The notes under the pieces: model-generated
Seen by the model: the letters and a program-made list of their open reading frames with translations, nothing else
Told to the model about the DNA's origin: nothing
The model's database searches: none
Position numbers and translations under genes: made by a program
In this document: positions 2,918-36,327 of the stretch, in pieces
Layout: every line of letters starts with the position of its first letter
Position numbering within the stretch: position 1 is the first letter of the stretch
Assembly: GCA_040882465.1 (NCBI GenBank)
Contig: JBBEBG010000026.1
Location: 195,974-259,973 of the forward strand
DNA: 64,000 nt
Direction: 5' to 3'
From: Gemmatimonadota bacterium
Lineage (GTDB): Bacteria > Gemmatimonadota > Gemmatimonadetes > Longimicrobiales > Gaopeijiaceae

Positions 2918-4825
2918 CTACCAGACGTCCCCTTCCAGGTAGGTGTATCCGGCGAGCCCGGCGATGTAGTCGGCGATGAAGGTGTTCGCTTCGCTCCTCG
3001 GGAGCGTGGTAGCGCGCGCGACCTTCTTCCGGAAGTTGGCGATGAGGGTGTCGGAGTCGTACTGGACGTACTTCAGGACGTCCGTCACCGTGTCCCCCCG
3101 CGAAAGCTCGGTCACCTCGTAATCGCCATCGGAAGTCAGGGAGAGGTGCACCGTGTTCGTGTCACCGAAGAGGTTGTGCAGGTCCCCGAGGATTTCCTGG
3201 TAGGCCCCGGTGATGAAGATCCCGAGGATGTAGGGCCGCGCCGGATCGAAGGTGTGGAGTTCGATTCCCCGCTGACCTGCCCCGTTTCCGACAAAGCGAT
3301 CGATCTTCCCATCCGAATCGCAAGTCACGTCCTGAAGCGTCCCGCGGCGAGTGGGGCGCTCGTCCAATCGGTGGATCGGCATGATGGGAAAGAGCTGGTC
3401 GATCGCCCAGGAATCCGGGAGGGACTGAAAGAGCGAGAAGTTGCAGAAGTATCGGTCGGTGAGGATGTCCTCCATCTCCGGGAGGATGTCCTCCCATTCC
3501 TCCGGCTCTCGTCGCGCGAGCTCCGCCCCCCGCGTCATGATCGCGAGGTAGAGCCGCTCCGCCAGTGCCCGTTCCGGGAGGCTCAGCACTCCGCTGTTGT
3601 ACAGCGACCGCATCCGGTCCTTCCAGTATGATGCGTCGTGGAAGACCTCCCGAAGCGATCGCTCGCTCATTCCGTGGAGCGTTTCCGCGAGGTCGTGGAC
3701 CACCGAGTGCATTTCTTCCGGGATCTCGTCCCGGTCCTCGACGATTTGGGTCTCCAGCGCGATGACGTTCACGAGGAGGAGGGTGTGGTGCGCGGTGAGC
3801 GCCCTCCCCGACTCCGATAGGATGTGCGGCATGGGGAGGTCGTTTTCCCGGCACGCCTCCGCCATCGCGTACACGATGTCGTTCGCATACTCCTGGATGG
3901 AGTAGTTCACGCTCGCCGAGCCGACCGAGCGAGAACCGTCGTAGTCCACGCCGAGGCCACCACCCACGTCCACATGGGTGATGTCGAGCCCGAGCCTGCG
4001 GAGCTCCACGTAATAACGCGCGACCTCGGTCATCCCCTGCTTGATGTTCCGGATGTCGGGGATCTGCGAACCCATGTGAAAGTGGACCATCTTGAGGAGG
4101 TCGGTCCGTCCCGCCGCGCGGAGCTTCTCAACGACACGCATGAGCTCGGAGGCCGAGAGCCCGAACTTGCTCTTCTCTCCGGCGGTCTCGGACCACCGTC
4201 CCGCCCCCGCGGTCGAGAGCTTGATGCGCACCCCCGCAACGGGGCGGATGTCCATCTCTTCGCCGAGCTTCAGGAGGAGATCCACCTCTGAGATCTTCTC
4301 GATCACGATCATCACCTGATGCCCGAGCTTCTGCCCCATCAGCGCCAGGTAGAGGTATTCCTCGTCCTTGTAGCCGTTGCAGATGATGAGGTGATCGGTC
4401 CGGTCGGTGAGAGCGAGGACCGCCTGGAGCTCGGGCTTGCTCCCGACCTCGAGTCCGAGGCCATGTTCCTCCCCGGCGGCGACGAGCGCCTCGAGGACCT
4501 TCCTCTGCTGGTTGACCTTGATGGGATAAACGAGGGTGTACCCCCCGTCGTAGTCGTACTCCTCCATCGCCGTGCCGAAGCGGGAGACGAGGGTCTCGAT
4601 CCGGGTGCGGAGGATGTCGGGGAAACGGAGGAGGATGGGGAGTCCGACGCCCTGACCCATGAGATCGGTCGCGATCTCGTAGAGGTCGAGTCCTTTCTCC
4701 GCTTCGCGCGTCGGATGCACGGTAACGTGCCCACTAGCATTGATGTCGAAGTAGCCGACGCCCCACCACTCGATGTTATAGAGATGCCGGGCCTCCTCGA
4801 TCGTCCAACCCATCGCCGATTCCAC
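2918..4825 (-). CDS. speA: biosynthetic arginine decarboxylase
   Basis: 635 aa. MGWTIEEARHLYNIEWWGVGYFDINASGHVTV... and the PLP-fold region match SpeA over the full length. Confidence 0.95.
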   Translation of the reverse strand: MESAMGWTIEEARHLYNIEWWGVGYFDINASGHVTVHPTREAEKGLDLYEIATDLMGQGVGLPILLRFPDILRTRIETLVSRFGTAMEEYDYDGGYTLVYPIKVNQQRKVLEALVAAGEEHGLGLEVGSKPELQAVLALTDRTDHLIICNGYKDEEYLYLALMGQKLGHQVMIVIEKISEVDLLLKLGEEMDIRPVAGVRIKLSTAGAGRWSETAGEKSKFGLSASELMRVVEKLRAAGRTDLLKMVHFHMGSQIPDIRNIKQGMTEVARYYVELRRLGLDITHVDVGGGLGVDYDGSRSVGSASVNYSIQEYANDIVYAMAEACRENDLPMPHILSESGRALTAHHTLLLVNVIALETQIVEDRDEIPEEMHSVVHDLAETLHGMSERSLREVFHDASYWKDRMRSLYNSGVLSLPERALAERLYLAIMTRGAELARREPEEWEDILPEMEDILTDRYFCNFSLFQSLPDSWAIDQLFPIMPIHRLDERPTRRGTLQDVTCDSDGKIDRFVGNGAGQRGIELHTFDPARPYILGIFITGAYQEILGDLHNLFGDTNTVHLSLTSDGDYEVTELSRGDTVTDVLKYVQYDSDTLIANFRKKVARATTLPRSEANTFIADYIAGLAGYTYLEGDVW

Positions 4826-10886: not shown

Positions 10887-12035
10887 CGTCGAGCTTTGAC
10901 CCAAGAGCCCGTCCTCAGGATTCGTGGACTGACGAAGCGATTCGGGGGTGCGGTTGCCGTGCATCCGCTCGATCTGGAAATCGGCGCCGGCGAGTACTTC
11001 TGCATTCTGGGTCCGTCGGGTTCGGGGAAAACGACGCTTCTTCGCATGCTGGCGGGATTCGAAGCCCCCGACGCCGGCGAGATCCATCTCGATGGAGTCC
11101 GCGTGGATGGGTTTCCCCCGGAGCGGCGGGACACCAACACGGTCTTTCAGGAATACGCCCTCTTCCCGCACCTCTCCGTGTTCGAAAACGTCGCTTTCGG
11201 GCCGCGAATGAAGGGAGGGCGTGGAAACTCGCTGAGCAGCCGGGTGCTCGAGTCCCTGGCGCTCGTCGGACTGGAGGGCCATGGCGACCGCTCGCCGGCC
11301 ACACTTTCGGGCGGTGAGCAGCAGCGGGTGGCCCTCGCACGGGCCCTCGTGAATCGGCCGCGCGTCCTTCTCCTGGACGAGCCACTCGCCGCCCTCGATC
11401 GAAAGCTCCGCTCGCGGATGCAGATCGAGCTTTCCAGGATCCAGCGCGAGTCCCAAGTCGCCTTCGTGCACGTGACCCATGACCAGGAAGAGGCGCTCAG
11501 GCTCGCGGACCGGGTGGCCGTGATGCGGGCGGGCCGTTTCCTCCAGGTTGGGGCCCCCGAGGAGGTGTACGATCGGCCCAACTCCGCCTTCGTCGCCGAC
11601 TTTCTGGGCTCGGCCAACATCTTCCGTGCCCGTCCCTCGGATGGCTCGCTTTTTTTCCCCGATGGAACCCGTGTCTCGATCGGTTCGCGCCCTTTCGACG
11701 CCGGGGGCGAAAGCGAACGGCTCTACGCGATCCGTCCCGAAGCCTTCATGGTGATTCGCGAGGGCGGAGGCGAGGACCCCTCCGGCGGGTCGGAGATGAT
11801 CCGCCTCCCGGCCATGATCACGGGGCGCTCACGCGTCGGAGGTGTCGAGGAGCTCGACCTCCGTGTGGGACCGCTGCGCTTCGTGGCCCATCTCCGCGGC
11901 CCGGCCCCCGTCATTCCTTACGCCCCCAGCGACCGGGTCGTCCTCCTTCTCCACCGGGAAGACATCGTCCCGCTCGTTCTGGAGGGCGGCGAGGAGGATC
12001 CCGATCCCGCTCCTGGGGCGGCACGATCCCCATGA
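10887..12035 (+). CDS. potA: spermidine/putrescine ABC transporter ATP-binding protein
   Basis: Walker A GPSGSGKTT, signature LSGGEQQRVALARAL, Walker B LLLDEPLAALD, and a TOBE-like C-terminal domain. The N-terminal 60 aa of ORF 10701.. is R/S/P junk. Start placed at in-frame TTG 10887 (MTQEPVLRIRGLTKRF), but no strong RBS, so the start is uncertain. Confidence 0.8.
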   Translation, partial: RRALTQEPVLRIRGLTKRFGGAVAVHPLDLEIGAGEYFCILGPSGSGKTTLLRMLAGFEAPDAGEIHLDGVRVDGFPPERRDTNTVFQEYALFPHLSVFENVAFGPRMKGGRGNSLSSRVLESLALVGLEGHGDRSPATLSGGEQQRVALARALVNRPRVLLLDEPLAALDRKLRSRMQIELSRIQRESQVAFVHVTHDQEEALRLADRVAVMRAGRFLQVGAPEEVYDRPNSAFVADFLGSANIFRARPSDGSLFFPDGTRVSIGSRPFDAGGESERLYAIRPEAFMVIREGGGEDPSGGSEMIRLPAMITGRSRVGGVEELDLRVGPLRFVAHLRGPAPVIPYAPSDRVVLLLHREDIVPLVLEGGEEDPDPAPGAARSP

Positions 12036-12931
12036 AGGAGGGCAAGGGAGAGGGCCGCACGGAAGGGATTCGAGGGCTCGCCCTCTGGACCGTCGGGCCG
12101 GCCACGGCCGTGCTCGTCGTCCTCTTCCTCCTCCCCCTCGCGATTGTGGGGGGATACGCCCTGTCGAGCGCGGGAAGCCAGGGAGAGCCGGCACTCCCCG
12201 CGACTTTCGCCAACTTCGTCCGCTCCTTCGATCCGCTCTACCTGGGAATCCTTGTTCGCTCGGTGAGGCTGGCCTTCATCTGCACACTCATCTGCCTGGT
12301 CGTCGGGTTCCCCCTCGCCTGGATTCTGCGCGGAATGGGCACCCCCGCCCGCCACCTGGCGCTCCTCGCCTTCATCCTTCCTTCTTGGACGAACCTCTTG
12401 GTGAAGAACTACGCCTGGATCGTCCTCCTCCGGCAGGAGGGCGTGGTCAACTCGGCCCTCCTCCGCCTGGGCGTCATCGGGGAGCCCCTCCCCCTCCTCT
12501 TCAACGAAGGGGCGGTCCTCGTCGGCCTGGTGCACACCTTTCTCCCCTTCATGGTCCTCCCGCTTTATTCCTCGCTCGAGAAGCTCGACCCCGCGCTCCT
12601 CGACGCGGCACGCGACCTCGGTGCGGGACGCTGGGCACGATTGCGCAAGGTCGTCCTTCCCCAGTGCGCGCCGGGAGCCGTCGCCGGGGCGATCCTCGTC
12701 TTCATTCCCACGCTCGGGTCTTTCGTGACCCCCGATCTTCTCGGGGGGGCCCGCGGAATGATGGTGGGAAACCTGATCCAGAATCAGATGCTGGTAGCGC
12801 GGGACTGGCCTTTCGGGTCGGCGCTCTCCATCTGGCTGATCGCGGCGTCGCTCGGGATGATCCTTCTCGCGGGAAGGCTCACCGGCCGGGGCGACACTTC
12901 GAGACCGGGACGGGCATCGTGGCTCCCCTGA
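12032..12931 (+). CDS. potB: spermidine/putrescine ABC transporter permease
   Basis: 6-TM BPD-transporter permease with EAA-like loop (LDAARDLGAGRWARLRKVVLP). ATGA overlap with potA. Confidence 0.85.
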   Translation: MKEGKGEGRTEGIRGLALWTVGPATAVLVVLFLLPLAIVGGYALSSAGSQGEPALPATFANFVRSFDPLYLGILVRSVRLAFICTLICLVVGFPLAWILRGMGTPARHLALLAFILPSWTNLLVKNYAWIVLLRQEGVVNSALLRLGVIGEPLPLLFNEGAVLVGLVHTFLPFMVLPLYSSLEKLDPALLDAARDLGAGRWARLRKVVLPQCAPGAVAGAILVFIPTLGSFVTPDLLGGARGMMVGNLIQNQMLVARDWPFGSALSIWLIAASLGMILLAGRLTGRGDTSRPGRASWLP

Positions 12932-12945
12932 GCGGCCCCCGCCGG

Positions 12946-13725
12946 ATGGGGATGGGGAGCGCGGTCTTTTTTGGGAGCGGGTTGGCCTTCTTGTATCTCC
13001 CGGTCGTGGTTCTCGCGGCGTATTCCTTCAACGACTCGCGCTTCGCCCTCGCCTGGGAGGGATTCACCCTCGACTGGTATCGCGGGGTGTTCACGAGCCG
13101 CGAAATCGGGCGGGCGGCCTGGAACACTCTGATCGTTTCGAGCGCGTCCACCATCGCCTCCGTGATCCTCGGGACCGCGCTCGGTGTCGGGCTCCACTTC
13201 AGCCGGTTCCGGGGACGTGAGCTTCTCTGGAAGTCCTTTTACCTCCCCATTCTCGTCCCGGACATCACGCAGGCCGTGGCACTCCTTTCCATTTTCGCCC
13301 TGGTCGCATTTCCCCTCGGTCTCACCTCGATCATCCTGGCGCACATCTCCTTCCAGATTTCCTTCGTCGCGCTGCTCGTACGGGCGCGATTGGACGCCTT
13401 TCCCGGAAGCGTCGTCGAGGCGGCGCGGGACCTGGGCGCCCCGCCCCTGGTCGCGATCCGAAAGGTGGTCCTTCCCCTCGCGGCACCGGGGATCGTGGCG
13501 GGCGCTCTCATCGCCTTCACCCTTTCGGTGGACGATTTCCTGATCGCCTACTTCACCGCCGGCCCGGGAGCTTCCACCCTCCCAATCCGGATCTATTCGA
13601 TGATTCGCAGAGGGGTCACACCGGAGGTGAACGCGCTGGCCACCCTGCTTCTCGCCTTTTCCCTCCTCACGATGACGGCGGCCATGCTCTTCCTGAGGAA
13701 GGGAGGAGGTAAGGACCGGGCTTGA
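12946..13725 (+). CDS. potC: spermidine/putrescine ABC transporter permease
   Basis: Internal ATG 12946 lies in the long ORF 11842... PotC-like permease (VEAARDLGAPPLVAIRKVVLPLAAPG). Confidence 0.85.
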   Translation: MGMGSAVFFGSGLAFLYLPVVVLAAYSFNDSRFALAWEGFTLDWYRGVFTSREIGRAAWNTLIVSSASTIASVILGTALGVGLHFSRFRGRELLWKSFYLPILVPDITQAVALLSIFALVAFPLGLTSIILAHISFQISFVALLVRARLDAFPGSVVEAARDLGAPPLVAIRKVVLPLAAPGIVAGALIAFTLSVDDFLIAYFTAGPGASTLPIRIYSMIRRGVTPEVNALATLLLAFSLLTMTAAMLFLRKGGGKDRA

Positions 13726-13836
13726 GGGTGCGGCCGCCGTACCTCCGCGGCCTTTACGCCCGGATCGGCCCCTTCTACCCTCAGGGATCCGCCCCCGGGC
13801 GCGTTCGTCTCCCCTCTTCCGAAATCACCGCGACCC

Positions 13837-14973
13837 GTGAACCCTTCGCACGCTACGCCTTTCCTCGCGCTCGTCGCCGCCGGCGTCCTCCTTTCGCTAT
13901 CGGTCGCCGGATGCGGCTCGCCCTCTCCCGAGCTTCCCGCCGAGATCGAGGCGTTCGGGATCACCGTCGAGACGGCACGCCTCTCTCCGACGCTCCGGCT
14001 TTTTAATTTCCCGGAATACATGGATCCGGAGCTCTTGAGGCAGTTCGAGGAGCGCTTCGGCACGCGAATCATCGAAGACTACTTCGACACGAATGAAGCG
14101 ATGATGGCTCGCCTGACGGCGGGAGGCACGGCGCAGTTCGATCTCGTCATGGCTTCGGACTATGCCGTGGAAATTCTCGCGGCGGCCGGGCGCCTCGAGC
14201 CGCTCGATCCAACACTTCTCCCGAACCGTGCGAATCTCCACCCGAGCTTCGGTTCACCGCCGTACGATCCCGAGAACCGCTTCGCGATCCCCTTTCAGTG
14301 GGGGACGACCGGCCTCGGGATTCGGGGGGACCGCGTGCAGGGAAATCCGGACGAGCTCGCGACCTGGGGGCTCCTCTTCGATGCCGCGAAGTCGCCCGGC
14401 CGCTTCGCCTTCCTCGATGACCCGCGCGAGACGATCGGGGCGGCGCTTCTTTACCTGGGTTACTCCGTGAACAGCACGGACGACGCGGAGCTCGCCGCTG
14501 CCGAGGCGGTCCTTACCGTGGCAGCGGGCCGCGCCGTGGCCTTCACTCCGGCCTCCACGGGACGCGACCTCCTTCTGGCGGGTGAGCTCGACGTCTCCCA
14601 CAACCACTCGGGCGAGATCACGGTTGCAGGGGAGGAGCGCCCTGAGATCCTGTACCTGGTCCCGCGGGAGGGCGCCGTGGTCTGGGCCGATAACCTGGTC
14701 ATCCCGGCCGGTGCCGCGGGAGCGTACACCGCGCATGTCTTCGTGAATTTCCTTCTGGACGCGCAGAACGGAGCCCGGCTCACGGAGGAGGTGCGGTACT
14801 TCTCTCCTAATCTCGCCTCATGGGAGCTCCTCGATCCTGTGCTCCGTGCCGAACACGAACGCCTCCTGGAACCGGGCGCGATGGAGGGGCTCGAGTTCAT
14901 CGCCGACGTGGGTCCCGACCGGCGCAAGTACGACCAGCTCTGGACGCGCGTGAAAGCCGGCTCGGCGCGGTAG
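13837..14973 (+). CDS. potD: spermidine/putrescine ABC transporter substrate-binding lipoprotein
   Basis: Lipoprotein signal LLSLSVAGC. PotD/PotF-family SBP fold ([23 protein letters not shown]...). GTG start. Confidence 0.8.
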
Positions 14974-19651: not shown

Positions 19652-21168
19652 CACAGGTCGTCATACCCAAGCGGCCGTTGATTCTGGGCGGCCTCCTCCT
19701 CGGCGTGATCGCGGATGTTCTCCTGCGGGCCCCGGGTGCGCCCGGGCTCAACCTCGCCCTCTGGGCGCTGGCCCTGGGGGGCGCCACCGGGCTTCTTCAT
19801 CGCCGCAAGACGGGCGCCCCATACCCCGAGGCAACAATTCTCGTCGCAGGCGGCGTTCTCCTGGCCGCCACCATCGCTTGGCGAGATTCGGAGGCGCTCA
19901 AGCTGCTCGCCCTGGCGGGATCGGCAACGGCCTTCGCGCTCCCGGCGTACCGGGCCGGTGCGTCCTGGGTGCGGCGGACCCATGTGTTCGAATACGGCGG
20001 GGCGATCGCCGCCGCCATGGCCAGCTCGGCATTCGGATGCCTCTTCCTCGCTTTCGACGGCCCGGACGACTCCCGTGCGGCCCCCGCCGCCGGGGTCGGA
20101 TGGTGGCGACGACTCGGTCCGGTGCTTCGCGGGGCGGCGCTCGCGCTCCCCGTCCTCCTGGTCGTAGGAGCCCTCTTCGCGGCGGCAGACCCCGTATTCG
20201 CGGACTTCATGGCCCGCCTGGTCCGATTCGACCTGGAACGGATCTTCGAACACCTCTTCGTCACCGGACTCTTCGCGTGGATCGCGACTGGATACCTTCG
20301 AAGCTTCCTCGGGAGGTCTCCTCTGGCCGAGGTCGGCCGGTTGGTGAGCTGGCGGCCCTCCTTGGGCGCGGGCGAGACCGCGACGGCGCTCGCACTTCTC
20401 GATCTCCTCTTCCTCGTCTTCGTGGCCGTGCAGCTCCGCACCTTCTTCGGCGGCGCCGCCTTCGTCGAGGCTACGCCCGGGCTCAGCTTCGCCGAATACG
20501 CGCGCGAAGGTTTCTTCGAGCTCGTGGCCGTGGGGGCCATCGTGATCCCCTTCCTTCTGGCGGCCGACCAGATGATGCGGCGCGACTCCTCGAGGGACGA
20601 GCGGGTCTTCCGCGCCCTCGCCGGCCTTCAAGTCCTCCTCCTCGCCGCCGTGATGGCGTCCGCCATCCAGAGGCTCCGACTCTACCTCGCCGAGTACGGC
20701 CTCACGGAGGCGCGTTTCTTCGCCGCAGCTTTCCTGGGATGGCTCGCCCTCTTGCTCGTCTGGTTCACAGCCACCGTGCTCCGAGGGCGACGCAGGCCCT
20801 TCGCCTTCGGTGCGCTTCTCATGGGTTTCGGCTGGATCGCGGCACTGATTCTGACGAATCCGGATGCCGCGATCGTCCGCGCGAACGTGGCCAGGGAAGG
20901 CACCGGTGTGGAGTTCGACGCGGCATACGTCACACGGTTGAGCGCGGACGCCGTTCCGACCCTCGTCGCCTCGCTTCCGGCTCTCACTCCGGTGGCGCAC
21001 TGTCGGGTCGCCCGGTCTCTTCTCGACCGATGGGGGACGCCCCCGATGGGGGACTGGAGAAGCTGGAGCCTCTCGGCCTGGAGAGCTCGGGTGGTGGTTG
21101 CGCGGGAGCGGGTGGCACTCACCGCCGCCCTGGGGGAAATGGACGACTGCCCCGACGGCACGACTTAG
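19648..21168 (+). CDS. DUF4173-like polytopic membrane protein
   Basis: ATG 19648 overlaps the uppS stop (ATGA). About 506 aa and highly hydrophobic. The family assignment is tentative. Confidence 0.55.
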
Positions 21169-21292
21169 GAGGGCCGCGCCGGTCTTTCCCGCGGCGCTTC
21201 TCTCTTGCCGGTGCGGGGTCCACCCGGGTACGATCCTCGTCGTCCCGCCGTCCTCAGGATTCCCCCTTCTCTCCCGCGGAAGGCGCCCTTCG

Positions 21293-23167
21293 ATGATTCC
21301 CCAGCACCTGATCCCGACATCGCTCGTTCTGGGAGCCTTTCTCGCCGTCAACGCGGCGGGAGCATCCGGGCAGGCACCGCCCGTCTCTCCGCATCCGGGT
21401 GAAGTTCTTTTCCAGCAGCGCTGCAACGTCTGCCATGGGGGAGGAGATCCCCGAGCCCCGACAATCGCCACTCTCCGTTCGATGACCGCCGAACAGCTCA
21501 CCTTCGCACTCACGGAAGGGATCATGGCTCCGCAGGGCTCCACGCTTTCCGCGGAGCAGCGATCCCAATTGATCGCCTATCTGGCCGCCCAGTCGGTTCC
21601 CCAGGAAGAGTGGATCACCTCCATGACATGCACCGCCGCCGCGCGGCGGGTTGCCCTGGAGGGGCCCGTGGCCATGCGGACCGCGGGCGTCGAAGTGACC
21701 GCCTCCCGCATGATCTCCGCCGAGGCGGCAGGACTCTCCCGGGACGATTTCGCGCGGCTCGAGCTGGCCTGGGCGATCGCCTTTCCCGGCGTCACCGGAC
21801 TTCGCGCGGGGCCGGTCATCGTCGGTTCGACGGTCTTTTATTCGGCCGTGAACACGGCGAAGCTCCTCGCCCTCGATACGGAGTCGGGGTGTGTAAAGTG
21901 GGTATACGACTCGCCGACCCCACTCCGCTCGTCGGTCTCGCTCGGAGAGATCGGTGCTCCAGTCCGCCCGGCCCTCTTCTTCGGTGATGCGCGGGGACAG
22001 GTACACGCGGTGGACGCGGAGACCGGCGCGGCGATCTGGATCGCAAGTGGGCGGGCCGACGAGGGGAGCAGCAACATCACGGGCTCCGTCGTCTTCCACG
22101 ACGGAAAGGTGATCGTTCCGCTCTCCGCCTCCGGCGTGGCCGCCGGCTCGAATCCCGACTTCGAGTGCTGCGTCGGACGAGGGGCCGTCGCGGCGCTGGA
22201 CGCCGAGACGGGCCGACGACTCTGGGCGTACGTCACCATGGAGGAAGCCGAATACACCGGCGCGGTGAACTCCGCGGGGGCAAGGCTGCGCGGTCCCTCG
22301 GGGGCTCCCATCTGGTCCACGCCGTCCATCGATGCGCGCCGGGGGCGAGTCTACGTGACGACCGGGGAAAATACCTCGCTTCCGGCTACCGGAACGAGCG
22401 ACGCCGTGATCGCGCTCGACATCGAGACGGGCGAAGCGCTCTGGATCTTCCAGTCGGTCGCGAACGACGTCTGGAACATGGCGTGCGGGGCGCGCCCGGG
22501 TCCGAATTGTCCCAGCGCGGACCAGAGCATTCTGCGGGACTGGGACTTCGGCGGCTCGGCGATCCTGATCGCGCTCGCGGACGGGCGGGAGCTCCTCCTC
22601 GCCGGCCAGAAGTCCGGCCACCTCTGGGCGCTGAATCCGGATGACGGGTCGGTCGTCTGGGAGAGGCGAGTGGGTGAAGGAGGAGCGCTCGGCGGAAACC
22701 ATTGGGGAATCGCGGTGGATGGGGAACGGGTCTTCCTCCCGATCAGTGATCCCGGAGCCGGCGCGAATCGGATGCCCGGGATGTATGCCTTCGGCATCGC
22801 CACCGGAGCACCCGTCTGGGAACATCGGCTGAGTCCCGATTGCCCGCCGGAGCGCGCGGAGCGCGTCCCGGGATGTCAGGCGAGGTTCGGGCTCTCGGCG
22901 ACGCCGTTGGTCGTGGACGGGGCGGTCATCAGTGCCGGGATCGACGGTCGCCTCTACATCTTCGACGGGGAGAGCGGCGAAACCCTCTTCCAATTCGACA
23001 CCGCCCGCCCCTTCGAAGCCATCAATGGAGTGGAGGGCCACGGCGGCTCGATTGATGCGCACTCCATCGCGGCCGGCGCGGGAATGGTCTTCATCGGGTC
23101 GGGATACGGCTCCTTCTCACAGCCGCCTGGAAACGTCCTCCTGGGCTTCCGTCCGGCGGAGAACTGA
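21293..23167 (+). CDS. secreted c-type cytochrome fused to a PQQ-like beta-propeller repeat domain
   Basis: Signal peptide. CNVCHGG haem-binding motif near the N-terminus. Repeated W-containing beta-propeller blades (GQVHAVDAETGAAIW, LWALNPDDGSVVW, GRLYIFDGESGETLF). ORF 21098.. trimmed to ATG 21293. Confidence 0.7.
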   Translation: MIPQHLIPTSLVLGAFLAVNAAGASGQAPPVSPHPGEVLFQQRCNVCHGGGDPRAPTIATLRSMTAEQLTFALTEGIMAPQGSTLSAEQRSQLIAYLAAQSVPQEEWITSMTCTAAARRVALEGPVAMRTAGVEVTASRMISAEAAGLSRDDFARLELAWAIAFPGVTGLRAGPVIVGSTVFYSAVNTAKLLALDTESGCVKWVYDSPTPLRSSVSLGEIGAPVRPALFFGDARGQVHAVDAETGAAIWIASGRADEGSSNITGSVVFHDGKVIVPLSASGVAAGSNPDFECCVGRGAVAALDAETGRRLWAYVTMEEAEYTGAVNSAGARLRGPSGAPIWSTPSIDARRGRVYVTTGENTSLPATGTSDAVIALDIETGEALWIFQSVANDVWNMACGARPGPNCPSADQSILRDWDFGGSAILIALADGRELLLAGQKSGHLWALNPDDGSVVWERRVGEGGALGGNHWGIAVDGERVFLPISDPGAGANRMPGMYAFGIATGAPVWEHRLSPDCPPERAERVPGCQARFGLSATPLVVDGAVISAGIDGRLYIFDGESGETLFQFDTARPFEAINGVEGHGGSIDAHSIAAGAGMVFIGSGYGSFSQPPGNVLLGFRPAEN

Positions 23168-28127: not shown

Positions 28128-29879
28128 TTACCGGCCGTCCACGAACCGCTCCTCGATCCAGCGTCCGATCATCTCCAGCGCCTCGGGAGCGAAGGTCTCT
28201 TCGATCGTCGCGTATTCCGCCATGAGGCCGGTCTCGGCATGCTGGAAGAGGTGATTGAGCCCGGGGAATACGTGAATGGTGGCGTCAGGATGGTCATCCC
28301 ACGCGTCCTCGAGAATGGGCACGCTTTGCGTCGGAGGGACCTGTAGGTCCCGCTCCCCGTATAGGGCGAGGGCGGGAATCTCGAGATTCTCGAGTGTATC
28401 GATCGGATCGTACACCACAAGATTCCTGTACCAGGGCGACACCATCGTCGGGAGACCGGCCTCCATGTTCGACTGCACTGTTTCGGCCTCCCACACCGCG
28501 CGCAGCGCAGAGCCCTCCTCGGGGGGGAGCCCGGCGATCGCCTCCTCGACGGCCCGGTGGACAGCCTCCCGCGCCCGCTCGACCGTCGTTTCCGAAGCGG
28601 CCGCGTCGATACCGATACGGTTGATCGTCAACCCTTCCTCGAATTGAGTTGCGCCGGAAGCCTCCATGATCGCGCGCGACTGAGCGAGCAAGATCTCCCG
28701 CCCGCTCACCGACGGCCCCGCCAGCATCACAAGGAAGGCCACATCCTCCGTGTCCGCTGCGACTCCGGGCGCGACCCACCCTCCTTCCGAGTGCCCGATC
28801 AGGCCGACGCGGTCCGGATCGATCTCGGGGCGTTCACGAAGGAATGCCACAGCCGCGAGAGCGTCCCCGATATTGTCGCGAATCGTCGCTTCCATGACGT
28901 TGCCCGTGGATCCTCCCACTCCGCGGTCGTCCACACGCAGAACCGCGATCCCGCGGCGGGTCAGGTGGTCCGCGATCACGAGGAAGGGACGATGCCCCAT
29001 GAGGGCTTCGTTTCGGTCCTGCGCGCCCGACCCAGTGATCATCAACGCAGCCGGGAACGGCCCCTCGCCTTCCGGAACCGTGAGCGTCCCGGCGAAACGC
29101 GTCCCATCGTTTGGGTTCTCGTAGGTCACCTCCACTTCCTCGTACGGAAAGGGCGGCACCGGGTCCTGCGGACGCGCGAAGGAGACCGGTCCGTCGCCCC
29201 GCGCCAGCCGCATCTGGATGGAGCTTCCGGCCTGCGTCCAGGTTCCCGCGATCGAATCGCGCCCCGCGGAAACCGTGCCCCGGAAGGCCCCGCTCGCGGA
29301 GGCGATCTCGAAGGCGAGCGTGTCTCTCGAAAGGCTGATGGAAGAGACCGGGATGTTCTCCGCGCCCTGGTCGGGGCTGTCCATGGAAGCGTGGACCTGG
29401 CCGCACGGCGCGGGCGCGAATTCGAAGCCGAGTCTCAGAACGAGGGCGCCCCCCTGATAGAGCCCGCCGTTCCAGTAACCCAGGAGATCCAACGCGGGAT
29501 CGGGGACCGCCAGATCCACGCGGAAAAAGCTCACCGGAATGGATTGACCGGCCGACTGAATGCTGCCGGTCAGCGCATCCCCCTCGATCATCCCCTGAAA
29601 AGTGGCCGATCCGGTCCCGAGGGTGCTCGGGAAGGTCGTGCTCACCGACGCGCCGAGCATCGTCACGGCGGAGAAAGGGTCGGAGCTCGGGTTGGCCCCC
29701 ATCCTGTGAATCGCTCCGCTCCAACTTCCGCCCACGTCGGAGAACTCGAAGGCCCCCCGCACGAGGTTGGCGCCCTGCGCCATCGTCCCGGCCCAACAGC
29801 CGCCCAAGTCCTGAGCGCCCGCGGGAAGGGCACCGGCGAGAATCCCGAACAGGGCGAGAAGGGACGCACGACGTATCAT
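28128..29879 (-). CDS. secreted alpha/beta-hydrolase fold protein with N-terminal beta-rich domain
   Basis: Signal peptide MIRRASLLALFGILAGALPAGAQ. Nucleophile elbow GHSEGG in the C-terminal half. Confidence 0.7.
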   Translation of the reverse strand: MIRRASLLALFGILAGALPAGAQDLGGCWAGTMAQGANLVRGAFEFSDVGGSWSGAIHRMGANPSSDPFSAVTMLGASVSTTFPSTLGTGSATFQGMIEGDALTGSIQSAGQSIPVSFFRVDLAVPDPALDLLGYWNGGLYQGGALVLRLGFEFAPAPCGQVHASMDSPDQGAENIPVSSISLSRDTLAFEIASASGAFRGTVSAGRDSIAGTWTQAGSSIQMRLARGDGPVSFARPQDPVPPFPYEEVEVTYENPNDGTRFAGTLTVPEGEGPFPAALMITGSGAQDRNEALMGHRPFLVIADHLTRRGIAVLRVDDRGVGGSTGNVMEATIRDNIGDALAAVAFLRERPEIDPDRVGLIGHSEGGWVAPGVAADTEDVAFLVMLAGPSVSGREILLAQSRAIMEASGATQFEEGLTINRIGIDAAASETTVERAREAVHRAVEEAIAGLPPEEGSALRAVWEAETVQSNMEAGLPTMVSPWYRNLVVYDPIDTLENLEIPALALYGERDLQVPPTQSVPILEDAWDDHPDATIHVFPGLNHLFQHAETGLMAEYATIEETFAPEALEMIGRWIEERFVDGR

Positions 29880-30028
29880 GGGCGACTTCCTGGAACGAAG
29901 GGCCTAGAGGACAGGGCTCGCGCGAATCGCGAGCCATGACGCCTCAGGTCATTCACGAATCGAAGGGGAAAAATCTTCATCGGGCCGGGCGCTCCCCACG
30001 ATCCTCGAGAACCGGGTTATAGCCCGGC

Positions 30029-30823
30029 TCAAGGCGCACCCAGCCCCGCGATCTCCTCGCGAATCTCTCGTAGCGCGCGAAGATGATCGGGACTCCACAT
30101 CGCCACCACCACCCCTTCCTCGTCCGGCAGCTCCCCAAGCCCCGTCCCGCGCGACCGCCGCACCCGGTCCATGATCAGGTCGCGGATCTCCGCGGGGTCG
30201 TCGATCCCCTCCATGATCGCCTTGTTTCCGACCGCGTACCGATTCGCCTCCCCGGGCCCCGCGGCTCCGGCCGTCTCGATGACGATCGTCCAGATTCCGA
30301 AGAAGTACTGCAAAGGCCCCCGTGTCAGATGGACATTCTGCACGTTCTCGAAAGTGATGGTGTGTTCGAGGATGTTCCAGATTCCTCGGCGGCAGCGGAG
30401 GCTCCGGGCATTCATCACATACCACATCGTGTCGTACTTCAGGTGGACCGCCACGTACGCCACGACGTCCGGGACGATCGCGAGCACCAGGGCCGGTGCG
30501 GCGAGGATCACTCCCATCTCGCGATCCGCGATAAAGATGCCGAGCCAGGCGAGGCCGATGAGCGCATCGATCGCGAGCGCGGCAACCCAGAAGTAGAGCT
30601 TCAGGTACCGGAGATAACTCCGCGACGGATGAAAGCTCCGGGGCACGTCTCCTGGGAGACTCGGGAGCTCCGGAGGCGCCCCGGGGATCTTGAAGGCGCT
30701 CGAGAGCCGTTTCCAGAGTCCGCGATAGACCCACTCCGCCGCCCGCTCGACGCCGCGGCGATCAGACTCTTCGTGCGTGACCGCGTTCGGCCCTCGACCT
30801 TGGGCGCGATCCGCGCCGCTCAT
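30029..30823 (-). CDS. bPH_2 (bacterial PH, YdbT-like) membrane protein
   Basis: Two TMs then a bPH_2-like domain (ITFENVQNVHLTRGPLQYFFGIWTIVIETAG). ATGA overlap with the upstream bPH_2 gene. Confidence 0.65.
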   Translation of the reverse strand: MSGADRAQGRGPNAVTHEESDRRGVERAAEWVYRGLWKRLSSAFKIPGAPPELPSLPGDVPRSFHPSRSYLRYLKLYFWVAALAIDALIGLAWLGIFIADREMGVILAAPALVLAIVPDVVAYVAVHLKYDTMWYVMNARSLRCRRGIWNILEHTITFENVQNVHLTRGPLQYFFGIWTIVIETAGAAGPGEANRYAVGNKAIMEGIDDPAEIRDLIMDRVRRSRGTGLGELPDEEGVVVAMWSPDHLRALREIREEIAGLGAP

Positions 30824-31320
30824 GACCCCGATCCGGACGTGTTGGAGGACAATGCGCGGAGCGCGTCCCTGATCTCCCGGAGAATGGCGAGCGCCTCGTC
30901 TTCCCCGGACGTTCCCGGTGACCGGACCCCCTCGTCCTCCCTCGCTCCCTTCATCCGTTCATAAAGAAAGTCGCGGAGCGGTTCGGGATTCCGGATCCCC
31001 TCGATCTTCATCGTGGGTCCAGAGGTCCCCGACGCAGTCTGGATGGGCACCTTCGCGAGCCCCATCCATCGCTCCAAGAGGTTTCGATTGACGTGGATGT
31101 CCTGGATTCTCCGGTACGTCAGGTAGACTTCGCGGCGGAAGAAGAAACCCCACGACATCTTCACCCCTTCGTCGTCGAACTCGTACCGAAGGGTCTTGAA
31201 GCGGATGAAGAGAGGAATGAAGACGACCGGGAAGGCGATGAGCGCGCAAAGCGAGACGAGCACGTAATAGGTGAGGAGCGAGTCGTCGGGGCGGGTGATC
31301 GCGCGCGGATCCGTCGTCAT
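30820..31320 (-). CDS. bPH_2 (YdbS-like) membrane protein
   Basis: Start at internal ATG (MTTDPRAITRPDD...) overlapping the stop of the RHH gene (ATGA). TM hairpin then the canonical TYRRIQDIHVNRNLLERWMGLAKVPIQTASG. Confidence 0.65.
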   Translation of the reverse strand: MTTDPRAITRPDDSLLTYYVLVSLCALIAFPVVFIPLFIRFKTLRYEFDDEGVKMSWGFFFRREVYLTYRRIQDIHVNRNLLERWMGLAKVPIQTASGTSGPTMKIEGIRNPEPLRDFLYERMKGAREDEGVRSPGTSGEDEALAILREIRDALRALSSNTSGSGS

Positions 31321-31520
31321 TTCACCTCGCCTCCTTTCCGAGCTTCGATGGTTGTCTCGCCCTTCGATCCCGCCTTCAGCCGACCGGCCTCCTTCAGAGC
31401 CCTGCGAAGAATGAACTCGATCTGACCGTTCACGCTCCGGAGCTCGTCGTCCGCCCAACGGCGCACGGCGTCGAGCGTCTTCGGGTCGACCCGAATCAGG
31501 AAGGCGTCGCGCTCGGCCAC
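31317..31520 (-). CDS. Arc/MetJ-type ribbon-helix-helix DNA-binding protein
   Basis: 67 aa. FLIRVDPKTLDAVRRWADDELRSVNGQIEFILRRALKE matches the Arc-family RHH pattern (beta-strand + two helices). Confidence 0.6.
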   Translation of the reverse strand: MAERDAFLIRVDPKTLDAVRRWADDELRSVNGQIEFILRRALKEAGRLKAGSKGETTIEARKGGEVK

Positions 31521-31529
31521 CGGACTCGC

Positions 31530-32471
31530 TTACGAGTAGAGGGACCCGGTATTCACTACGGGCTGAACATGCCGATCGCTGCAAAGGACGACGAGGAGGT
31601 TCGACACCATGGCCGCCTTTCGCTCGTCGTCGAGGGTGACGATCCGGTCCGCCTCGAGCTGTTCGAGGGCCATCTGGACCATTCCGACCGCCCCCTCCAC
31701 GATCCTCGTCCGCGCCGCTACGACCGCGCCGGCCTGCTGGCGCTGGAGCATCGCCGCTGCGATCTCGGGAGCATACGCCAGATGGCTGATTCTCGCCTCC
31801 ATGACCTCAACGCCCGCCCGCTCGAGTCTCTCCTGGATGTCGGCCCGGAGCTGATCGGAGATGTCCCCCGTATTCCCGCGCAGCGAGACCTCGTGGTCCT
31901 CGCTGTCATAAGGGTGCCGGCTCGCGAGGTTCCGGAGCGCCGATTCGCTCTGGGTTGCGACATAACCCTCGTAATCCTCCACCTCGAGAAGCGCTTCGGC
32001 CGTTTCCACCACGCGCCAGACGACGATCGCGGAGATCTCGATCGGGTTTCCGTCGCGGTCGTTCACCTTGGAAGGTTTTCCGCCAGTACGTCCATGTGTC
32101 TTCACGACCGAGCCCGAAGCCGACTTCTCTTCGTGTTGTGTCGCCGTGGAACCCGTCTCGAAGTTTCGAATTCGGAGAGAGACCTTCTTCTTCGAGAAGA
32201 AGGGATTCACCCAGTAGAAGCCGGACTCCTTCACGGAGCCCTTGTAGAGGCCGAAGAGAAGGAGGACGCGCGCCTGATTCGGGGCGATCGCCATGAAGCC
32301 GAAGAGGCTGACGACACCGGCCGGCATGAGGAGCAATCCGGCGACGATTGCGGGCCAGAATCCGGTGATCCCCCCGTACGCGATGACCGCAGGGCTGCCG
32401 GCGATCATCACGATGCAGGCGAAGAGGGCGGGCCATCCGGAGCGAGGTCGAACGGGAATTTCTCTGACCAT
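31530..32471 (-). CDS. SPFH/band-7 (stomatin-prohibitin-flotillin) domain protein
   Basis: N-terminal TMs then SPFH core (NPFFSKKKVSLRIRNFETG...IEISAIVVWRVVETAEALLEVEDYEGYVATQSESALRNLAS). RBS AAGGAGAG lies 9 nt upstream of the ATG. Confidence 0.8.
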   Translation of the reverse strand: MVREIPVRPRSGWPALFACIVMIAGSPAVIAYGGITGFWPAIVAGLLLMPAGVVSLFGFMAIAPNQARVLLLFGLYKGSVKESGFYWVNPFFSKKKVSLRIRNFETGSTATQHEEKSASGSVVKTHGRTGGKPSKVNDRDGNPIEISAIVVWRVVETAEALLEVEDYEGYVATQSESALRNLASRHPYDSEDHEVSLRGNTGDISDQLRADIQERLERAGVEVMEARISHLAYAPEIAAAMLQRQQAGAVVAARTRIVEGAVGMVQMALEQLEADRIVTLDDERKAAMVSNLLVVLCSDRHVQPVVNTGSLYS

Positions 32472-32514
32472 GGGAGAGGCTCTCCTTGGGATACGTTATC
32501 GTTATACTATCTTT

Positions 32515-32526
32515 ATGATATCATAC
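32515..32526 (-). promoter_or_regulatory. perfect 12-bp palindrome TATGATATCATA in the AT-rich promoter of the SPFH-RHH-bPH2-bPH2 operon
   Basis: On the minus strand: TTGACC, 17 nt, then the palindrome (covering the -10 position), then AAGGAGAG, then ATG 32471. A tandem CGTTATCGTTAT lies immediately downstream. Confidence 0.5.
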
Positions 32527-32790
32527 CCTCCGGCTCCCGGTCAACCTTGCCGTTCAGCTCTCGGCCTGCCGCCTCGGCCTGCATCCAGTCAACCTGTCCC
32601 AAACTCCCATGGACGCTCTTTCGAGCCGCGAAGTCCCGCGGTCCGAGACCGCCCCGCGGAAGCCCACCATGAACCCTGGCGTGGCCCCTGAGCCTCGTCG
32701 AGCATAGCGGACCTTCGGAATTTCGAATTCGAGGCCGCCGTTGTCGCTTGAAGCCCCCTTTCCGGGCCTCGAAAATTCGCCACTTACATT

Positions 32791-34188
32791 GTGATCGAGC
32801 GGACTTCAGCCCGGCGCGCCCTTGCCCCGGGCCGAACCATTCCTCACGATGCCGAGCCCCCATCCATGATCCAGATCGCGTCGCACTCGACCTCCGATCC
32901 GCGTGCCGAAGGCCTCACCGCGACTCCACTCACGACGTGCGCAAACAATCTGTCGAGTCTCGGCGATGAGATCGCGGCGCTGGCCGTCCACCTGGACGCC
33001 GCGAAGTACCGGCTGCTCGTACGGCTGCGCGAATTCGACGAAAAAGAAGGATGGGCGGGATTTCGGAGCTGCGCTCATTGGCTGAGCTGGCGGACATCGC
33101 TCGCGCCCGGGGCGGCGAGAGAGCAGGTACGCGTGGCTCGAGCGCTGGGAGATCTGCCCCTCCTGAGCGAGGAAATGCGTGTGGGCCGCGTCTCTTATTC
33201 GAAGGCACGCGCGCTCACGAGAGTCGCGAACCGGGAGAATGAAGCGAACCTCGTGCAGTTCGCGAAGCACGCCACGGCGACCCAAGTGGAAAGGCTGGTG
33301 CGGGGCTGGCGCCAGGTGGACCGCTCGAAAGAGGTCGAAGAGGAGCGGGCGCGCCATCGAGGCCGCAGCCTGACCCTCTTTCCCGATGCCGACGGAAGTT
33401 GGGTGGTGCGGGGCCGATTGGACCCCGAAGTGGGAGCGTTGCTCCAGAAGGCTGTGGAGGCGGCAGCGGAGATTCTTGATGCGAGGAAGGAGCGGGTCTC
33501 GGATGCAAACTACGCCCCCGTCGAAGAACAACCCGCTCTCGAGCGCCGGTGGGCCGATGCCCTCGGGCTCGTTGCAGAGGCTGCGTTGGGGGAAGGGATA
33601 GACCAGCGTGACCCGGGGCCCCGAGAGGTGGGGTCACCACGCTTGGAGGTCGAGAGCGGGCACCGATCGACAAGAGCGGGGCGGCGCGCGGATCGATTCC
33701 AGGTCGTCATCCATGTGATGCCTGACGATCTTCGCACCCCAGGCAGAGGCGCCGAACTGTCCGCCTGCGGAGGGTTAAGGGCGGGCCTGGATCCAGGAAC
33801 CGGACTTCCCGGACGCCTCCTCGGAGACGACACGCGCGTCTCCGCGGAGACGTGTCGGCGAATCGCCTGCGACGCGAGCCTCGTCCCTATGGTGCGTGGA
33901 AAGGTCGCTTCGGCGGCGGTCAACGCCCCGAACGGCGTGCTCGACGTGGGGAGACGGCGCCGGACCGTCCCGCCGGCCCTTCGCCGGGCACTCGAAGCCC
34001 GCGACGGGGGGTGCCGGTTTCCCGGGTGCGGCGTGAGTCTCCGTTGGTGCGACGCGCACCATGTCATGCACTGGGCCGACGGCGGAGCCACGAAGCTCGA
34101 TAACCTCGTCCTCCTTTGCCGCTCATTCCGAAGTCGGCATGATGCTCCGTCCATCACCGAGCGCTCCACGAGGAGGGTTATGAGATGA
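32791..34188 (+). pseudogene. DUF222-family HNH endonuclease (13E12-type), reading frame disrupted near 34120-34145
   Basis: DUF222 N-region and HNH C-x2-C pair (CRFPGCGVSLRWCDAHHVMHWADGGATKLDNLVLLC). The expected HH..H tail (CSVHHRALHEEGYEMTLTEGGATQFRQPDG) continues in the -1 frame (ORF 34185..). Removing a 26-nt segment, 34120..34145, restores LLCSVHHRALHEEGY. Confidence 0.6.
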
Positions 34189-34872: not shown

Positions 34873-36327
34873 ATGCCCGCTCTTGACGCCCGCCGCAGAC
34901 TCCGCGCCCTCCCCGCACTTCTCCTCGCCCTCATGTTTCAGGGGTGCGGCGGTGAGCAGGCCCCCGACGCGGCGGCGGACGCATTGCCGGGCATCGAGGT
35001 GATAGCCGAGCTGGTTCCCCCTCCCGGGGTCCCACAGGCACTCGATCGGTCCGAACCCGCGACGGTCATCGTCAACCTCGAGACGAATGAGCAGACGATG
35101 CGGCTGGCGGAAGGGGTGGACTACACCTTCTGGACCTTCGGCGGAAGCGTTCCCGGTCCCTTGATCCGCGTGAGGGTGGGGGACCGCGTAGAGTTCCGGT
35201 TGAGCAATCACCCCTCGAGCCAGAACCCTCACAACATTGACCTCCACGCGGTGAACGGACCGGGCGGCGGGGCGGTCTCCTCGCTGGTTGCGCCCGGACG
35301 GTCCGCCACCTTCGCGTTCAAGGCCCTGAATCCGGGCCTTTACCAGTATCACTGCGCCACGGCGCCCGTGGGTATGCATGTCGCCAACGGGATGTACGGC
35401 CTCATCCTCGTCGAACCCGAGGAGGGGCTTCCTCCGGTGGATCGGGAATACTACGTGATGCAGGGAGAATTCTACACGGCTGGGGCCTATGGCAGCCCCG
35501 GGCTGCAACCATTCGACATGCAGAAGGCGATGGCGGAGGATCCGCCCTATGTGGTCTTCAACGGAGGGGTCGGGGCCCTCTCCGGCACCAATGCACTGAC
35601 CGCCGAGGCCGGCGAGACGGTGCGGCTCTTTGTGGGGAACGGCGGTCCCAACCTCAGCTCCTCTTTCCACGTCATCGGCGAGATCTTCGATCGCGTTTGG
35701 GTGGAGGCGGGGACGATGGTGAATGAAAACGTCCAGACGACGATGATCCCGGCGGGCGGCGCCGCGATCGTCGAATTCGAAACCAACGTTCCAGGTGATT
35801 TCCTCCTCGTGGATCACGCGCTTTTCCGGGCGTTCAACAAGGGAGCGCTCGCGATTCTCGACGTGGGCGGCGCCGACGGCGAAACGGTGTATTCGGGGCA
35901 GATCACGGAAGGTGTCTACGAACCCGAAGGAGGCGCGATTCAGAGCTTCGCGGCGGCCCCTCCCCCGCCCACCGTGGCGGCGTCGGTTGAGGAACGGATC
36001 ACTCTCGGGAGCGCCATTTACACGCAAAGTTGCGTCGCTTGTCACCAGGCCACCGGCACGGGGTTGGGCGACGTATTCCCGCCCGTCGCCGGCTCGGACT
36101 ATCTGAATGCGAACGTGGCCCGCGCGATCCGCACGGTTACGAACGGTCTCTCGGGACCGATCACGGTCAATGGAATCGAATACCAGGGGCAGATGCCCCC
36201 GCTCGGACTCACCGACGAGCAGGTCGCGAACGTGTTGACCTACGTCTATAGCCAGTGGGGGAACTCGGGCGCCGTGGTCACGCCGGAGGAGGTGCGGGCG
36301 GCGCGATTCGTGACCGTCCCTAACTGA
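34873..36327 (+). CDS. nirK: copper-containing nitrite reductase with C-terminal cytochrome c domain
   Basis: Lipobox LMFQGC. Type-1/type-2 Cu ligands (HNIDLHA...YQYHCATAPVGMHVANGMYG). C-terminal CVACH haem motif. Confidence 0.9.
   Translation: MPALDARRRLRALPALLLALMFQGCGGEQAPDAAADALPGIEVIAELVPPPGVPQALDRSEPATVIVNLETNEQTMRLAEGVDYTFWTFGGSVPGPLIRVRVGDRVEFRLSNHPSSQNPHNIDLHAVNGPGGGAVSSLVAPGRSATFAFKALNPGLYQYHCATAPVGMHVANGMYGLILVEPEEGLPPVDREYYVMQGEFYTAGAYGSPGLQPFDMQKAMAEDPPYVVFNGGVGALSGTNALTAEAGETVRLFVGNGGPNLSSSFHVIGEIFDRVWVEAGTMVNENVQTTMIPAGGAAIVEFETNVPGDFLLVDHALFRAFNKGALAILDVGGADGETVYSGQITEGVYEPEGGAIQSFAAAPPPPTVAASVEERITLGSAIYTQSCVACHQATGTGLGDVFPPVAGSDYLNANVARAIRTVTNGLSGPITVNGIEYQGQMPPLGLTDEQVANVLTYVYSQWGNSGAVVTPEEVRAARFVTVPN

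Follow-up and report, generated by a model that had tools for sequence, protein, structure and literature searches.

In a 64,000-nt window from a Gemmatimonadota bacterium of the family Gaopeijiaceae (assembly GCA_040882465.1, contig JBBEBG010000026.1, positions 195,974 to 259,973 of the forward strand), four genes are arranged head to tail on the minus strand. They code for an SPFH/Band_7 membrane protein, a small ribbon-helix-helix (RHH) protein of the Arc type, and two membrane proteins with a bacterial PH domain, called bPH2-A and bPH2-B. An earlier note on this DNA had described the genes as a tightly packed operon under a palindromic promoter and had proposed a membrane-stress or membrane-organization module. 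The four-gene locus was compared with related loci from other genomes, with emphasis on the SPFH-RHH pair and on the GATATC boxes found upstream of it.

The gene for the SPFH protein (31530..32471) codes for 313 amino acids with two N-terminal transmembrane (TM) helices. It is followed by the gene for the RHH protein (31317..31520), a putative autorepressor of 67 amino acids with a GTG start. The next two genes code for bPH2-A (30820..31320, 166 amino acids), which is YdbS-like, and for bPH2-B (30029..30823, 264 amino acids), each protein having one bacterial PH domain. Open reading frames, Pfam assignments and a reading of the junctions agree on the four genes and on their tight packing. All four domain calls made earlier are right, as the Pfam search finds Band_7, Arc/RHH and bPH_2 (twice). 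NCBIfam yielded nothing above curated cut-offs for the operon proteins. The junctions from RHH to bPH2-A (GTGAAATGACG) and from bPH2-A to bPH2-B (GGGTCATGAGC) are 4-nt ATGA overlaps, as had been described. The SPFH and RHH genes, however, are separated by 9 nt and not by 10, counted from the stop codon TAA (31532..31530) to a GTG at 31520, where an ATG start had been implied. ATGA overlaps of 4 nt are the commonest overlap type of bacterial operons and are unremarkable in themselves. They leave no space for a terminator between the genes. The ribosome-binding site of bPH2-A (AGGAGG) sits within the last codons of the RHH tail.

Upstream of the SPFH gene, also on the minus strand, is a strong sigma-70-like promoter. 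It consists of the -35 hexamer TTGACC (32539..32544), an 18-nt spacer and the -10 hexamer TATCAT (32520..32515), which is preceded by TG (10/12 consensus matches). A TTGACA-like -35 is found at the equivalent position in related loci. This is the sole promoter-like site in 29800..32900, where 0.4 are expected, and its -35 hexamer falls just beyond position 32530, the upper coordinate that the earlier note had given for the locus. The -10 lies inside a perfect palindromic 12-mer (TATGATATCATA, 32514..32525), so that the description of the promoter as palindromic is correct. The 12-mer holds the extended -10 (TGATATCAT) and the first of three putative operator boxes (box 1, GATATC, 32517..32522, overlapping the -10 hexamer at 32515..32520). 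Box 2 (GATAGT, 32506..32511) matches GATATC in 4/6 positions and is found 11 bp downstream of box 1; box 3 (GATAAC, 32495..32500) matches in 5/6 positions and is found 22 bp downstream of it.

Two further features flank the coding region. The Shine-Dalgarno sequence of the SPFH gene (AAGGAG, 32482..32487, minus strand) is part of an inverted repeat (GGAGAG-C-CTCTCC, 32472-32489) directly before the ATG. The repeat could pair, which would mask the ribosome-binding site, and it is not obviously conserved among related leaders. At the other end, a GC-rich hairpin (GAGCCGGG-CUAUAA-CCCGGUUC, 30009..30030, minus strand) begins in the stop codon of bPH2-B and has no U tract. The 71-nt fold has an energy of -38.9 kcal/mol (z = -3.5). 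The hairpin is a possible terminator; it was not called by the consensus terminator scan.

For comparison, the SPFH protein was used as anchor in a scan in which each GTDB species was represented by one genome, and the 80 best-scoring loci (51-74% identity) were analyzed. They span Gemmatimonadota, Planctomycetota, Acidobacteriota, Pseudomonadota, Armatimonadota, Chloroflexota and Eisenbacteria. An RHH gene is located immediately downstream of the SPFH gene in 70/80 loci when the family hidden Markov model is used, and in 69/80 by tblastn. SPFH and RHH genes are -4 to 376 nt apart (median 30). The pair is also present in three further phyla, as seen in the isolate records of Deinococcus sp. 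QL22, Bacillus thuringiensis YB6 and Parabacteroides distasonis. A dedicated RHH repressor beside an SPFH gene had been considered unusual. For this SPFH subfamily it is the rule, being encountered in 70 of the 80 loci and in at least seven phyla.

Alignment of the upstream DNA reveals the consensus gATAtCA-aag-TGATATCA-tttt-GaTATCa. Its three GATATC boxes (at -11, 0 and +11) are spaced by exactly 11 bp. A TTGACA-like -35 begins 21 nt before the middle box, and the middle box gives the extended -10. An exact GATATC is found within 300 nt upstream in 66/67 RHH-positive loci (those with enough upstream sequence) and in 0/10 RHH-negative loci (Fisher p = 1e-11). The background frequency is 9% of 330-nt tiles, a figure in which the operator tiles themselves are included. 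The boxes are also found upstream of the pair in Bacillus thuringiensis (GATATAaaagtGATATCatttttATATC, with GATATAAAAGTGATATCATTTTTATATC as an example of the three-box consensus operator), in Deinococcus and in Parabacteroides (as TAATATC boxes). Because these boxes overlap the promoter, follow one another at intervals of one helical turn, and are present or absent together with the RHH gene, the RHH protein is likely to act as a dedicated autorepressor.

The SPFH orthologs that lack an RHH partner (10/80) are 53-68% identical to the protein from the window. Nine are from Planctomycetota, mostly Pirellulaceae and one from Phycisphaerales (L010, L012, L024, L032, L039, L041, L043, L044 and L045), and one is from Dehalococcoidia (L063). 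Several of the RHH-less loci from Pirellulaceae share another conserved leader (…GGAGGTGCGATGAAAAGTGATTTGATGA…). This suggests loss or replacement of the regulatory cassette as a whole. The cassette of SPFH gene, RHH gene, promoter and operator looks self-contained and horizontally mobile, because promoter, operator and putative repressor are kept as a unit across phyla at an SPFH identity of about 70%. Lateral transfer of SPFH genes has already been argued by Hinderhofer et al. (PMC2636767).

In the window itself, the layout of the boxes is shifted. The upstream (-11) box is absent (the sequence is CCGGAG instead), and the boxes are found at 0, +11 and +22. This layout is common to the window and to two close relatives, L109 and L111. 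The +11 box is GTTATC in L109 and CATATC in L111, and the +22 box is GATAAC and GATACC, respectively. The sequence TGATATCA occurs once in the 64 kb (0.19 expected; at least one occurrence in 18/100 shuffles). That the palindrome is real is concluded from its conservation in other genomes and not from the statistics of the window. Within the window there is no sign of a wider regulon, as TGATATCA is unique and matches to two boxes are at chance level.

The RHH protein is assigned to the Arc/RHH family on the basis of matches that are borderline individually and consistent collectively. It scores 20.4 bits against the Pfam family Arc (PF03869), which is exactly the cut-off (20.4). RHH_5 (E = 1e-4) is below its cut-off, and ParD_like is weaker. 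Variants of P22 Arc in PDB match with E = 1e-5 to 0.04, and the alignment spans the beta-strand and the RSVN motif that opens helix 2. In the DNA-contact region, the RHH core aligns residue for residue with Arc. A PHROG annotated as "Arc-like repressor" matches with E = 1e-4. The family alignment indicates a core of about 50 amino acids (MAxR(D/K)SFLLRxDPxxLxALRRWADDELRS(V/L)N(G/A)QIE(F/Y)xLRxAL..AGR), followed by a variable, charged, low-complexity tail. An all-against-all search with the RHH protein resulted in 1640 clusters (50% identity) at E <= 1e-3 and 173 at E <= 1e-10.

A further PDB match (9pio, "Arc family DNA-binding protein") has no bearing on the RHH protein, as this structure is that of a ClpXP substrate complex. 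Two longer RHH-containing proteins (P0244 and P0159) were considered as domain fusions and turned out to be merged gene calls across the SPFH C-terminus and the RHH protein. In public annotation, the RHH protein from Parabacteroides distasonis is labeled "Arc family DNA-binding protein". Two of the RHH partners are mislabeled in RefSeq, the one from Deinococcus sp. QL22 (L106, 3918-4115) as "PTS ascorbate transporter subunit IIC" and the one from Bacillus thuringiensis YB6 (L107, 3755-3919) as "toxin-antitoxin system HicB family antitoxin". Both small proteins align with the RHH family.

The assignment of the SPFH protein is clear. Band_7 (PF01145) is matched over residues 62-254 with 90.2 bits (cut-off 23.6; E = 2e-25). 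An N-terminal membrane anchor is predicted from the hydrophobic sequence and from two helices in the AlphaFold2 (AF2) model (13-36 and 39-56), for which the predicted local distance difference test score (pLDDT) is 79-96. The model, computed from 40 close homologs, has a mean pLDDT of only 62 and is poor beyond these helices; a long helix (235-274) is predicted in its C-terminal part. There are at least 8000 SPFH homologs at E <= 1e-10. The closest ones share about 70% identity and are distributed across phyla, with source labels Thermoanaerobaculales, Planctomycetales, Gammaproteobacteria and Proteobacteria. Sequence and alignment-profile searches of PDB detect similarity to Pyrococcus stomatin only (E ~0.003-0.006). 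The protein probably belongs to one of the small, uncharacterized subfamilies SPFH6-12. None of the four operon proteins has a Pfam match to NfeD.

The two bPH_2 proteins differ in size. In bPH2-A, the bPH_2 domain (residues 42-115, E = 2e-16) is behind a hydrophobic stretch of 28 residues. Pfam detects a single bPH_2 domain in bPH2-B (E = 2e-12), a protein that is 100% identical to an NCBI entry "PH domain-containing protein [Gemmatimonadota bacterium]". In the AF2 model of bPH2-B (pLDDT 84), an N-terminal helix (17-43) precedes two TM helices (68-99 and 108-131); these are followed by a beta-sandwich of the PH type with its capping helix (133-225) and by two C-terminal helices. Its best PDB matches by Foldseek are bacterial PH proteins (3dcx, 3hsa and 3b77; probability 0.9-1.0). 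The 159 amino acids of YdbS hold one PH domain and two TM helices, the 493 of YdbT three PH domains and six TM helices (PMC8657885). The pair had been called YdbS/YdbT-like. This applies to bPH2-A, which is YdbS-like with its 166 amino acids, but not to bPH2-B, which has 264 amino acids, two TM helices and one PH domain.

The bPH_2 genes are a conserved two-gene unit of their own. In a metagenome scan with bPH2-B as anchor, bPH2-A is directly upstream in about 20 of 24 loci. Free-standing pairs (164-166 plus 240-277 amino acids) occur on a Phycisphaeraceae chromosome and on two other contigs (L115-L117), in unrelated surroundings, and 2/3 of these have the 4-nt overlap. Known roles of such pairs are in antimicrobial-peptide resistance or export; DdE/DdF are needed for the export of enterocin DD14 (PMC8657885). 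Bacterial PH domains form oligomeric rings (PMC3581485). The local pair is not linked to antimicrobial-peptide roles by anything in the window; for instance, the operon has no gene for a bacteriocin or an ABC transporter.

The combination of the two pairs is rare. Relatives of bPH2-A or bPH2-B are absent within ±5 kb of the SPFH gene in all 80 SPFH-anchored loci (tblastn, E <= 1e-3; phmmer, E <= 1). Conversely, neither SPFH nor RHH genes were found near bPH2-B in any of the 24 bPH2-B-anchored loci, including those with 1.1-4.8 kb of upstream sequence. The four-gene order is seen in three places only, the window and two contigs from close relatives. On the P0004 contig (SPFH 82% identical), Band_7 is followed by a 65-amino acid gene, a bPH_2 gene (165 amino acids) and a 260-amino acid gene. 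In L111/P0010 (SPFH 83% identical), bPH2-A is 92% identical as far as the contig end. Two other relatives with an equally close SPFH protein (P0003 and P0002, 82-83% identical) nevertheless stop after the RHH gene and have no bPH_2 pair. Two with 75% identity also stop after RHH (P0013, and P0012 with its contig end about 260 nt past the RHH gene). The four-gene fusion is thus real and has been inherited within a small clade of Gemmatimonadota, but it does not reflect a general association. The earlier note had regarded an SPFH partner of bPH_2 genes as unusual. Their linkage is indeed rare (0/80 and 0/24); it is, however, best taken as a local fusion of two modules and not as a conserved four-part system. 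As to linkage in other genomes, the arrangement recurs in the two close relatives but not in the wider sets of loci.

We consider it probable that the operon is composite, a lineage-specific fusion of two conserved two-gene modules under one autoregulated promoter. The first module would be the gene for an SPFH membrane scaffold, followed by that for an Arc-type RHH protein. RHH dimers would occupy GATATC boxes that are 11 bp (one helical turn) apart, and would thereby occlude the -10 and the start region. As the RHH protein would be translated from the same mRNA right after the SPFH protein, its level would track the output of the operon, and the resulting negative feedback would fix the dose of an oligomeric membrane scaffold. 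The second module would be a pair of cytoplasm-facing membrane proteins of the YdbS family with one bacterial PH domain each. In this Gemmatimonadota lineage, the pair would have been inserted directly behind the RHH gene, with its ribosome-binding site now in codons of the variable RHH tail. For this reason, it would be co-transcribed and under the same GATATC/RHH control. The sequences themselves show the gene content and packing, the promoter with its boxes, the conservation of either module and the joint presence of RHH gene and operator. We infer that the RHH protein binds DNA and represses, that the four genes are co-transcribed, and that SPFH and PH-domain proteins may cooperate. From family knowledge, a role as membrane-stress module is plausible.

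Several points weigh against this interpretation. The argument for DNA binding and repression by the RHH protein is, throughout, one of comparative footprinting. As the 80 loci are the top-scoring ones among at least 471 that were confirmed, the count of 70/80 covers only the closer part of the family. The operator in the window is degenerate, having one perfect box while the others match in 4/6 and 5/6 positions. Taken alone, the motif in the window is not significant, and matches to two boxes are at chance level. An internal promoter for the bPH_2 pair is possible within the RHH gene. The SPFH model is too poor for a statement on contacts between SPFH and RHH or between SPFH and the bPH_2 proteins. 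Finally, present evidence points to no inducing signal for the operon.

It may be asked if the four proteins rather form one membrane complex, in which an SPFH scaffold and ring-forming bPH_2 proteins are combined with RHH as sensor or regulator into a four-part membrane-stress system. The tight packing with its signatures of translational coupling would fit, as would the recurrence of the arrangement in three related contigs. Both families oligomerize at membranes (PMC3581485), and both have members in the sigma-W antimicrobial-peptide resistance regulon of Bacillus subtilis, namely YqfA (PMC2636767) and, according to other papers, ydbST. Such a complex is nevertheless unlikely, given that linkage is missing in 80/80 SPFH-anchored and 24/24 bPH2-B-anchored relatives, and even in two relatives with an SPFH protein that is 82-83% identical. 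Moreover, each pair is conserved and evidently functional alone. It is tempting to speculate that RHH is titrated or released according to the assembly state of SPFH and, in this lineage, also by bPH_2 complexes. The cassette would then be a portable feedback sensor of membrane state, conserved with its promoter-operator in more than 10 phyla and comparable to the partner switching of PspA and PspF. If so, the capture of the bPH_2 genes would mark a functional partnership of two ring-forming membrane assemblies. We regard this as a long shot.

A toxin-antitoxin-like or abortive-infection module, with SPFH as effector, RHH as antitoxin and autorepressor, and the bPH_2 proteins as passengers, comes to mind because type II toxin-antitoxin loci typically have an autorepressor of the RHH type that acts at its own promoter. 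The HicB label of the Bacillus thuringiensis homolog in RefSeq points in the same direction. So do the patchy spread across phyla at about 70% identity, which suggests horizontal transfer, and the homologs in plasmid and phage records. However, none of the four proteins matches a PADLOC-DB v2 defence model at E <= 0.1. Antitoxins normally keep a toxin-binding region, while the RHH protein has no conserved second domain and a variable, low-complexity tail. SPFH orthologs (53-68% identical) stand without RHH in 10/80 loci, the effector-first gene order is atypical, and the neighborhoods consist of ordinary housekeeping genes. We judge such a module to be highly improbable. Hardly any more credit is due, and indeed slightly less, to the idea that RHH serves SPFH chiefly as a structural or regulatory partner, similar to NfeD, with the GATATC boxes being bound by another factor or being mere promoter elements. 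SPFH genes commonly travel with a small partner, which is NfeD for SPFH1, 2 and 5 (PMC2636767), and the middle box doubles as -10, so that promoter function could explain part of its conservation. Yet the -11 and +11 boxes are conserved without being promoter elements, all boxes vanish exactly where RHH is absent (0/10), and the RHH core corresponds residue for residue to the DNA-binding Arc in the DNA-contact region. The composite operon with its autoregulated promoter is the reading that we retain.

No functional clue comes from the neighbors of the operon, which code for a hydrolase of the S9/S15 type, an ABC transporter, an endonuclease with DUF222 and HNH domains, and a copper nitrite reductase that carries a cytochrome c domain. 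The endonuclease gene (32791-34188, plus strand, 465 amino acids; DUF222 E = 1.5e-20, HNH E = 1e-5) is divergent and begins about 250 bp upstream of the operon promoter. The DUF222-HNH family, known above all from actinobacteria as the 13E12 repeat family, is regarded as selfish or mobile. This gene may mark a variable region beside the cassette. On the P0004 contig, a TerB-domain gene (4349-4813, minus strand) is divergently oriented upstream of the SPFH promoter, at the place where the window has the DUF222-HNH gene. Further along (34873-36327, plus strand), a protein of 484 amino acids has multicopper-oxidase/cupredoxin domains and, at its C-terminus, a cytochrome c domain. It looks like a copper nitrite reductase of the NirK type to which the electron donor has been fused.

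Downstream of the operon, the S9/S15-type gene of the window (28128-29879) is co-directional and has no Tricorn domain. In several Gemmatimonadota-like relatives, an S9/S15-type serine peptidase/hydrolase after the cassette (L081, 1396-3507; L112/L113, 4225-6438) is convergent and has Tricorn_N. The shared neighbor may be residual synteny or coincidence. Scans of the window with Rfam and for tRNAs found nothing, so that there is no indication of an RNA element or integration site near the operon. Unusually strong AT skew is seen in the 2-kb bins 12001-14000 (-0.27), 20001-22000 (-0.23) and 56001-58000 (+0.17), compared to the rest of the window.

SPFH proteins are widespread in bacteria. Most subfamilies are without known function or regulation, and NfeD has so far been the only recognized operon partner. 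Our results indicate that an Arc-like repressor of its own, together with a GATATC operator/promoter that hardly varies, accompanies one highly conserved SPFH subfamily. The cassette ranges over Gemmatimonadota, Planctomycetota, Acidobacteriota, Pseudomonadota, Bacillota, Bacteroidota, Deinococcota and others. This results in a testable regulatory model, for which cultivable hosts exist (Bacillus thuringiensis, Parabacteroides distasonis, Deinococcus and Cellvibrio). The PH-domain pair that this lineage has captured amounts to a natural experiment on the cooperation of two oligomeric membrane protein families. The conserved SPFH-RHH-GATATC cassette is the more valuable result, compared to the four-gene fusion that had been flagged.

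A survey of prokaryotic SPFH proteins from 2009 reports NfeD partners for SPFH1, 2 and 5 only, and none for SPFH3, 4 and 6-12; a DNA-binding partner is not mentioned (PMC2636767). A 2026 survey of SPFH proteins in Pseudomonas aeruginosa does not report one either, and no description of an SPFH-RHH pairing was found in open-access literature text. The characterized SPFH-NfeD systems (YbbK/QmcA-YbbJ, YqfA/FloA-YqeZ and YuaG/FloT-YuaF) also have a Band_7 domain behind an N-terminal anchor and are encoded in a small conserved operon together with a short partner (PMC2636767). In the cassette described here, this partner is a predicted DNA-binding RHH protein and not NfeD.

The bPH_2 genes resemble those for Bacillus subtilis YdbS/YdbT and enterococcal DdE/DdF in being two adjacent, co-oriented genes for membrane proteins, and bPH2-A corresponds to YdbS in size and layout. 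In contrast, YdbT has six TM helices and three PH domains in its 493 amino acids, where the shorter bPH2-B (264 amino acids) has two and one. The pair in the window is without bacteriocin or ABC-transporter context, and in this lineage only it would be driven by the SPFH-RHH promoter. With type II toxin-antitoxin operons that have RHH antitoxins (CcdA, ParD and RelB families), the locus shares a small RHH protein that would repress its own operon at boxes overlapping the promoter. It differs from them in that there is no recognizable toxin and no conserved toxin-binding tail, RHH is encoded by the second gene, and the partner stands alone in 10/80 loci.

For the RHH protein, P22 Arc and the Arc-MetJ superfamily are the nearest known relatives. 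Arc dimers bind half-sites about 11 bp apart. Common to Arc and the RHH protein are a strand-helix-helix core of about 50 amino acids, with RSVN at the start of helix 2, and an operator of short boxes that are one helical turn apart and overlap the regulated promoter. Unlike in P22, the operator consists of GATATC boxes, usually three. The RHH gene is downstream of, and presumably co-transcribed with, a gene for a membrane scaffold. It is chromosomal, occurs in many phyla, is not a phage immunity gene, and codes for a variable, charged C-terminal tail. Taken singly, the parts of the operon all belong to known types, namely SPFH scaffolds, RHH autorepressors related to Arc, and PH-domain proteins similar to YdbS.

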